This document shows positions 33,701-36,700 of a stretch of DNA of 64,000 bases, piece by piece. Location: the NCBI RefSeq assembly GCF_030013205.1, contig NZ_CP122648.1; one strand, given 5' to 3'. This DNA is from Escherichia coli (GTDB lineage Bacteria; Pseudomonadota; Gammaproteobacteria; Enterobacterales; Enterobacteriaceae). A program made the position numbers. Position 1 is the stretch's first letter; each line of letters begins with the position of its first letter.

Positions 33701-36700
33701 TTATACGTGAACAGGTCAATGCCGCCGAGAGTAAAGCCACATTTTGCGTACAAATTGCAGGCAGGTACATTGTTCGTTTGTGTCTCTAATCGTATGCCAA
33801 GGAGCTGTCTGCTTAGTGCCCACTTTTTCGCAAATTCGATGAGACTGTGCGCGACTCCTTTGCCTCGGTGCGTGTGCGACACAACAATGTGTTCGATAGA
33901 GGCTAGATCGTTCCATGTTGAGTTGAGTTCAATCTTCCCGACAAGCTCTTGGTCGATGAATGCGCCATAGCAAGCAGAGTCTTCATCAGAGTCATCATCC
34001 GAGATGTAATCCTTCCGGTAGGGGCTCACACTTCTGGTAGATAGTTCAAAGCCTTGGTCGGATAGGTGCACATCGAACACTTCACGAACAATGAAATGGT
34101 TCTCAGCATCCAATGTTTCCGCCACCTGCTCAGGGATCACCGAAATCTTCATATGACGCCTAACGCCTTGCTCACCGGAAAATTGCGAGCGCAGCGAGTA
34201 ATTTTCGCCGAATGATTCGGTATAGAGTGAAATCGCTTTATCAACAACTACCTTTTCTTTCATACTAAAATTGCCTTCGAGTTTTACGTACAACATTTTA
34301 TTAGTAAGCATGCTCGTTTTGTCACCCGCTGATGCTTACCGTTAATTAATATAATCACTTGTATTAAATAGACTTTCTTTAAAAATACAAGACACTCTGT
34401 TATTACAAATCGTGCATGCCGTCTATCCTGCTTGCACGATGCACATTATCTCACCCAAAGAACTCATAACATTTTAATTTATTTAGCATTAAATTAAAAC
34501 TCTACCGGTAAACAAGCATCTCTAGGCGTAAAAAACAGGCACTTTTTTAAATCCCAGCTAGAATAGGCTGTATAGGCAGACAGTTGCAAGACAAGGAGCG
34601 TTTTATGTCTAACAGTCCATTTTTAAATTCTATACGCACGGATATGCGACAAAAAGGTTATGCGCTGAAAACTGAAAAAACTTACCTGCACTGGATTAAG
34701 CGTTTTATTCTGTTTCACAAAAAACGTCATCCTCAGACCATGGGCAGTGAAGAGGTCAGGCTGTTTTTATCCAGCTTAGCAAACAGCAGACATGTAGCCA
34801 TAAACACGCAGAAAATCGCTTTAAATGCCCTAGCTTTTTTGTACAACAGGTTTTTACAACAGCCGTTGGGCGATATTGATTATATCCCTGCAAGCAAGCC
34901 TAGACGGCTACCCTCTGTTATCTCTGCAAATGAAGTGCAACGCATTTTGCAGGTTATGGATACTCGCAACCAAGTTATTTTTACGCTGCTGTATGGTGCA
35001 GGTTTGCGCATTAATGAATGCTTGCGTTTGCGGGTTAAAGATTTTGATTTTGATAATGGCTGCATCACTGTGCATGACGGTAAGGGTGGGAAAAGCAGAA
35101 ACAGCCTACTGCCCACGCGCCTAATCCCAGCAATAAAATAACTCATTGAGCAAGCGCGGCTTATTCAGCAAGACGACAACTTACAAGGCGTAGGGCCATC
35201 GCTGCCTTTTGCTTTAGATCACAAATACCCTTCTGCTTATCGACAAGCGGCGTGGATGTTTGTCTTTCCCTCCAGCACGCTCTGCAACCACCCGTATAAC
35301 GGCAAATTATGCCGCCATCATCTGCATGACTCCGTTGCGCGAAAGGCATTGAAGGCAGCCGTACAAAAAGCAGGCATCGTTAGCAAGCGTGTCACTTGTC
35401 ATACATTTCGTCACTCGTTTGCTACGCATCTATTACAAGCGGGGCGTGATATTCGCACTGTGCAAGAACTCTTAGGGCATAACGATGTTAAGACCACGCA
35501 AATCTATACGCATGTGTTGGGTCAGCATTTTGCCGGCACCACCAGTCCTGCGGATGGACTGATGCTACTTATCAATCAGTAAAAGTAGATAAATATCTTT
35601 ATGTAGCCCTGAGTAGCCCCTGATACTTTTTATGGTGAAAAAGATAAACAATCATAGAGGGGATAAATATGAGCCAGTTCTACCATTGTTCAGATAAGTT
35701 TAAGCAAGATACTGTCAATCACAGTGACCATTCATGGTCATTACACTTCCTCCAGTTGCCAGACAATGCCTAACATAAAAACGCAAAAGCCCAAAAGTCA
35801 GAGCTTAGGTGTTCTAGGCGTTTTCTAAGCGCTGAAGAAATACGTCTTACCGTAGATTGCGTGCGTTTCTGAAGCACATTTTCCTTATACATGGCTTTAT
35901 CCCAGGCAGCTTCATCAAGCTCTTGGAGTAACAAGCCAGTAATAATGCGACACTCTCGGGTTTGTAGCGAGCCGCTGGTGAGATCGGAGTTATAGCGGAA
36001 AGGGGTCATTTGTAATTATTTGTGGGTGGAGGATAGTTAACTTATTATTGTAGTTGGAAGAGGCTGCTTTCCAAACATTAGCACCTCGTAATGCTTGTTA
36101 CTGTATATTAATTTATGCTCTTAGCGCATGTTAATGGGCTATTACAATGCATAATGTCCACATCAAGATAACTGTGGCTTAACACCTGTACAAGCGAAAA
36201 AAATCAATCACCTGTCCGGAAATACGGGATCACTGTAAAGTGTTGGTGAGGCAGTCTAGGAGGGGGATTTAATTTGGGATACTGATGAAAGGATTATGAT
36301 CAGTTGGATATAGGATCGTACTAAGCTGAGCGGCAGGTTAGCTAGATTAGTTAACCAGATAAGTGAAATCTAGTTCCAAACTATTTTGTCATTTTTAACT
36401 TTCGCGCTAGCTTGCAACACCACACCCAGTTTCCATCTATTTTGTCACTTTTCCCAAAATAACTCTCAAAAACCCCCATTTTCACCCCTCCCAATTCCCA
36501 ACTATTTTGTCCGTCTACAGGGCTGCCGACCGGCGGCCCTTTTTTATAAGTGATATCAATAATTCCATTATTCATATACCCATTGATATAAATATATTCT
36601 GAATTATTGCTAATGTCTGATAATAAACTTGATTTCTTGCTGTTTTAATAATATTTAAATAATAAATTTATATTTAAGATTGAGTAATTAATATTATTTT

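Follow-up and report, generated by a model that had tools for sequence, protein, structure and literature searches.

The intI2 gene of this Escherichia coli strain is, with a probability of about 95% as judged from its sequence, the canonical Tn7 intI2 pseudogene, disabled by the ochre codon that is usual in class 2 integrons. The gene lies in a window of 64,000 nucleotides (assembly GCF_030013205.1, contig NZ_CP122648.1), by which we mean the whole stretch of DNA that was analysed. The ochre at codon 179 is already known and is flagged in public RefSeq annotation. It is the textbook reason for the uniformity of class 2 integron arrays, and it remains of use in annotation: an integron that is unable to reshuffle its own cassettes has a resistance content that stays the same as long as no other integrase is present. 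Here that content is sat2 and aadA1, without dfrA1 and without a functional estX. The features of the gene on which this reading is based are as follows.

34605..35582, plus strand: intI2, class 2 integron integrase pseudogene (translation, sequence identity, RefSeq note, Pfam)
35139..35141, plus strand: in-frame ochre codon TAA, codon 179; translation stops after 178 residues
35007..35084, plus strand: predicted catalytic residues kept, 5' of the stop, R135 (35007-35009) and K160 (35082-35084), from alignment to VchIntIA (2A3V)
35400..35507, plus strand: predicted catalytic residues lost, 3' of the stop, H266, R269, H292 and the nucleophile Y301 (35505-35507), from the VchIntIA alignment

The intI2 frame runs from an ATG at 34605 to a terminal TAA at 35580-35582 and comprises 326 codons when the terminal stop is counted (325 plus the stop). 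The original prediction had described a single TAA at codon 179 within a 325-codon frame, and translation bore this out, as the TAA at 35139-35141 was the sole interruption and the frame stayed open for 146 codons past it. In the list of open reading frames, the two halves of the gene were returned at 34584-35141 and 35256-35582 in a common frame. When the stop was read as Q, residues 4-317 aligned unbroken and in a single frame to 2A3V (E = 8.5e-91). Pfam analysis assigned the SAM-like domain PF13495 to residues 6-89 and the catalytic domain PF00589 to residues 105-305, across the stop. The unbroken alignment and the catalytic domain match that spans the stop therefore indicated a single gene with an interruption, and not two ORFs that adjoin by chance.

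The identity of the gene was confirmed by comparison with the Tn7 copy of plasmid R721 (NC_002525.1), to which its 978 bp were 100% identical (978 of 978 bases, the TAA at 179 included). Positions 20000-40000 of the window matched, base for base, the chromosome of E. coli ETEC4079 (NZ_CP122643.1), which was obtained from pig faeces in Belgium. RefSeq agrees on the gene identity; its annotation of ETEC4079 lists the gene as a pseudogene, 'class 2 integron integrase IntI2, internal stop'. The further claim that the ochre codon is typical of class 2 integrons was supported by the R721 identity, by the internal stop noted in RefSeq, and by published descriptions (PMC5559693, PMC8876359, PMC8858760).

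The alignment of intI2 with VchIntIA was gap-poor over residues 4-317, including a stretch of 21 residues that aligned with ALKEKYPNAPYEFRWHYLFPS, which we take to be the IntI-specific extra segment of the tyrosine-recombinase architecture. K160 was assigned as the first K of GKGGK, on the assumption of homology with K172 of XerD and K160 of VchIntIA. Four of the six catalytic residues fall past the stop, which sits inside the catalytic domain. A C-to-T change at base 535 of the gene would have converted the Gln codon at position 179 (CAA) to the ochre codon (TAA). The predicted 178-residue product would retain the N-terminal SAM-like DNA-binding domain together with R135 and K160. Because H266, R269, H292 and Y301 are missing, this product should be unable to cleave or transfer strands, and DNA cleavage and rejoining at attI2 or attC would not take place. 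Changes in the array would then require an integrase that acts in trans, a stop that is suppressed on rare occasions, or events that are independent of the integrase. In the passages of PMC5559693 and PMC8876359 that cite Hansson et al. 2002, the ochre at codon 179 gives an inactive 178-aa polypeptide and replacement of the codon yields an active enzyme. TAA-to-CAA alleles of intI2 have likewise been described as functional (PMC8858760).

The distribution of the allele was assessed in E. coli and in plasmids. intI2 was found in 112 E. coli records (110 of 5,426 complete genomes), all of which were at least 99% identical and most of which were 100% identical. The other E. coli intI2 copies that were retrieved all read TAA (5/5). 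A sense-codon allele was considered among the three E. coli records listed at 99.9% identity, and was rejected for the two that were retrieved (L008 and L009), which carried TAA together with an unrelated H38Y substitution. Records were counted with a 61-mer probe in which CAA replaced TAA. Exact matches to this probe numbered 0 among the 112 E. coli records: every record was placed in the 95-99% band, and the ten that were listed each matched at 98.4%, which corresponds to one mismatch. The stop codon is the rule in E. coli intI2.

The same probe was exact in 118 of the 224 PLSDB plasmid records with this part of intI2, mostly from Salmonella, above all S. Infantis megaplasmids, with a few from Providencia and Klebsiella, and the plasmid intI2 copies at 99.3-99.4% identity were annotated as intact proteins. 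Among sequenced plasmids, intact alleles have ceased to be a numerical rarity, probably owing to the heavy sampling of clonal S. Infantis megaplasmids. The intact intI2 type is also known from Providencia, E. coli and Proteus (PMC5559693, PMC8858760). Two plasmid copies of the intact allele were examined: the S. Infantis pESI-like plasmid NZ_CP016409.1 (L006) and the K. pneumoniae IncC plasmid pA1763-Ct2 (NZ_MG764552.1, L007). Both read CAA (Gln) at codon 179 and have no internal stop. The alignment with sense-codon alleles that had been proposed as a check was thereby obtained: the intact alleles read CAA, whereas in the window the sense codon is absent and TAA stands in its place.

The cassettes ∆estX, sat2 and aadA1 lie on the strand opposite intI2 and are divergently transcribed from it. 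The attI2 region and the array comprise the following features.

34292..34604, minus strand: attI2 region with cassette promoters, identical to canonical Tn7 (definitions from PMC5559693)
34164..34293, minus strand: estX cassette remnant of 130 bp, which retains the 5' UTR, nt 1-59 of estX and the 3' portion of the cassette's attC (match to estX cassettes, L004 alignment)
33628..34152, minus strand: sat2, streptothricin acetyltransferase cassette gene
32782..33570, minus strand: aadA1 cassette gene, 262-aa ORF

The cassette junction was located at ...AAAATGTT (34292) by alignment with four other arrays. On the minus strand, the -10 element of Pc2A (TAAAAT, 34476-34471) and the -35 element of Pc2B (TTGTAT, 34390-34385) were both of the V1 form. 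The aadA1 gene is labelled 'frameshifted' in RefSeq (32735-33570, minus strand), in this and in every retrieved Tn7 copy, yet 32782-33570 is uninterrupted and has the usual AadA1 ends. The label is probably an annotation artefact of the reference model.

The original prediction had called the array dfrA1-less. No dfrA1 is present, as stated; the first position is not simply vacant, however, but holds the estX remnant, and the array derives from estX-sat2-aadA1, which is a known class 2 array of pig E. coli (PMC6167118). An intact array of this kind is found in the Tn7 of strain YZ22PE67 (NZ_CP171874.1, L004), which shares with the window the attI2-estX junction, the junction between the estX attC and sat2, and the TAA allele. 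The window was collinear with this array except that bases 2179-3000 of L004 (822 bp) were missing, which correspond to 784 nt of coding sequence plus the 5' half of attC. The breaks fall after nt 59 of estX and 38 nt past the estX stop, inside attC, and at the junction ...TTCGGCGA is joined to AAATTACTC... with 1 nt of microhomology (a shared A). Neither break lies at a G/TT crossover, so that this step was an ordinary deletion and no integrase reaction. The attI2-estX and estX-sat2 boundaries, in turn, are precise cassette junctions. The deletion junction was found only in ETEC4079 when 5,426 E. coli genomes and 72,556 plasmids were searched. A clean excision of dfrA1 was also considered and was rejected, as sat2 and attI2 are separated by 130 bp more than they are in the clean sat2-aadA1 array of strain C6 (L005).

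The last change to the array in this strain was thus an integrase-independent deletion of 822 bp within the estX cassette. The ochre codon had been put forward as relevant to how the array arose. For this last step that suggestion does not hold: the deletion needed no integrase, so the state of codon 179 neither aids nor impedes an explanation of it. By way of the attC remnant, the deletion fuses codons 1-19 of estX in frame to sat2, and the resulting ORF of 227 codons (33628-34311, minus strand) includes the estX ATG at 34263. Translation of the fused frame could give a Sat2 with an N-terminal extension, as far as the sequence allows a prediction. With the 5' half of the estX attC lost, the remnant and sat2 now constitute one fused cassette. 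When class 2 arrays are typed by PCR product size, the product from the window could be misread as plain sat2-aadA1.

Three other explanations of the ochre codon were weighed against loss of function. If the TAA were a sequencing or assembly error, intI2 would really be intact, and single-base errors are always a general possibility. That is the one point in favour of an error; the R721 reference carries the same base, the CAA probe was exact in 0 of 112 E. coli records, and all five retrieved copies read TAA, so that we give this explanation practically no credence. The cassette arrangements bear on a second explanation, in which the ochre codon is read through, naturally or by a suppressor tRNA, to an extent sufficient for meaningful IntI2 activity, leaving the gene attenuated and not dead. 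Identical TAA alleles adjoin four first-cassette arrangements (dfrA1, estX, estX-dfrA1 and sat2) with precise attI2 junctions. These differences beside one and the same allele show that precise exchange at attI2 has occurred in the lineage, and that its catalyst must have been something other than the normal product of this gene. Were TAA179 leaky, occasional IntI2 activity would explain such exchanges of the first cassette, and the 146 open codons past the stop are what readthrough would lead one to expect, although an open downstream frame may reflect only the youth of the mutation. Of the E. coli stop codons UAA is the least leaky, and both release factors recognise it, which counts against readthrough. 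A search for a suppressor tRNA turned up no tRNA genes at all within the window. An integrase supplied in trans accounts for the exchanges equally well and is the simplest account of them, rare suppression of the stop being less likely. Class 1 integrons have been found alongside those of class 2 in 14 pig E. coli isolates (PMC6167118), and the literature treats the TAA allele as inactive (PMC5559693, PMC8876359). Readthrough at a meaningful level is very unlikely on these grounds.

It is also conceivable that the 178-residue fragment keeps a function of its own, for example binding to attI2 and modulation of Pc2 or PintI2 without recombination. The fragment would keep a complete PF13495 SAM-like domain (residues 6-89), and the TAA allele has been maintained, not deleted, in every copy examined. 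This maintenance is explained by recent origin and clonal spread, since Tn7 copies are 99.9-100% identical and a recent, clonal element would have allowed no time for intI2 to decay. The catalytic fold, moreover, is reduced to half a domain. A separate role for the fragment is extremely unlikely. Inactivation of intI2 by the ochre codon, against which no feature of the sequence speaks, is therefore the reading that we retain.

The integron lies within a complete Tn7-type element, the main features of which are listed below.

22899..36519: whole Tn7-type transposon at attTn7, 25 bp past the glmS stop codon
23033..30759, plus strand: tnsA, tnsB, tnsC, tnsD and tnsE
36399..36519: outermost 121 bp at the left end of Tn7, a variant that departs from canonical Tn7-L at 20 positions

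The element is flanked by a 5-bp duplication, GGGCT (22894-22898 and 36520-36524), and the lpf-O113 fimbrial operon lies beyond its far side. Outside the cassette region and the left end, the Tn7 body showed two base differences from other E. coli copies, at 31471 and 33581; the base at 33581, which lies between the start of aadA1 and the stop of sat2, is shared with none of the four comparison arrays (L002-L005). Just past tnsE, at 30815-30967 (minus strand), is a 153-bp fragment, annotated as an incomplete transposase of the IS256 family, that was also present in other Tn7 copies. Between intI2 and the left end, a 79-aa ORF (35770-36009, minus strand) matched positions 1-72 of the 184-position profile of BrxA, a BREX defence protein (E = 2.5e-16). 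This ORF was present in every Tn7 copy examined and looks like a truncated relic. Farther along the window, after phoU, a region of low GC content (31-38%, 47040-53911) that is unrelated to the integron holds a hypothetical protein of 832 aa, a pentapeptide-repeat protein, and a frameshifted gene for the T3SS effector espY4.

Cassette region apart, the outer left end is where the differences of this Tn7 copy from the canonical element are concentrated. The 20 differences, one of which is an indel, cluster at 36399-36516, and farther in, the end has the canonical sequence. At the terminus stands TGTAGACG, where the canonical element has TGTGGGCG. The three 22-bp repeats of the GACAAAATAG type, which we take to be TnsB-binding sites, were spared, with changes at 2 of 44 positions compared to 18 of 76 elsewhere (Fisher p = 0.0095). 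Because the differences avoid the repeats, they look like natural divergence under constraint and not sequencing noise. The canonical left-end sequence used for the first comparison occurs without mismatch in L002, L004 and L005. No other E. coli genome searched carries a match to the variant. No donor was found among PLSDB plasmids, where the best match was 90.3%, nor with two exact patterns in species-representative genomes or one in JGI metagenomes, a pattern search that a single-base mismatch would escape. An origin from a resident relic beside lpf was considered and rejected, since in Tn7-free E. coli the match begins exactly at the chromosomal flank. That this Tn7 copy is a natural chimera, with an outer left end from an unsampled relative in the Tn7 family, is a doubtful proposition as it stands. 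As for a route, recombination with an unsampled Tn7 relative, for example by tandem insertion at attTn7 followed by deletion, would be the likeliest.

Comparison with known integrases and elements places this intI2 among the pseudogene alleles of the Tn7 type. VchIntIA (IntI4 of the V. cholerae chromosomal integron, PDB 2A3V) shares with intI2 the fold family, the aligned catalytic residues and the integron-specific segment (ALxxKYP...W..FPS). Unlike the intI2 of the window, VchIntIA is intact and active; its sequence is only distantly related, and it was used solely for placing the catalytic residues. The Tn7 of R721 is much closer, with the same attI2 region, the same Pc2A and Pc2B promoters and the same tnsABCDE backbone as the window, in addition to the identical integrase gene. 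The window differs from the R721 element in having the estX remnant in place of dfrA1 and the diverged outer 121 bp of the left end.

The intact alleles of L006 and L007 are of the same length as intI2 in the window and have the same neighbours, attI2 and the ORF with the BrxA fragment. Besides codon 179, they show five or six further base differences from the window. Relative to the window, T127A, H206R and N293T are found in both, A176V is found only in the Salmonella copy, and one or two changes are silent; at residue 293 the intact alleles have T, as does VchIntIA. In L006, dfrA14 occupies the first cassette position and IS26 adjoins the left end. In the attI2 region, both plasmids carry just the two defining substitutions of Pc2A-V2 (TAAAGT) and Pc2B-V2 (TTATAT), with the V2 bases at positions equivalent to 34472 and 34388 of the window, from which the V2 variants are absent. 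As the intact alleles differ at further bases and in their promoters, they are a sister lineage and not simple revertants of the window allele. The V2 promoters, which are weaker than the strong V1 forms, have so far always been linked to an intact intI2 (Jove et al., PMC5559693). At the sequence level, the comparison of the window with L006 and L007 reproduces this published linkage between promoter type and intI2 allele.
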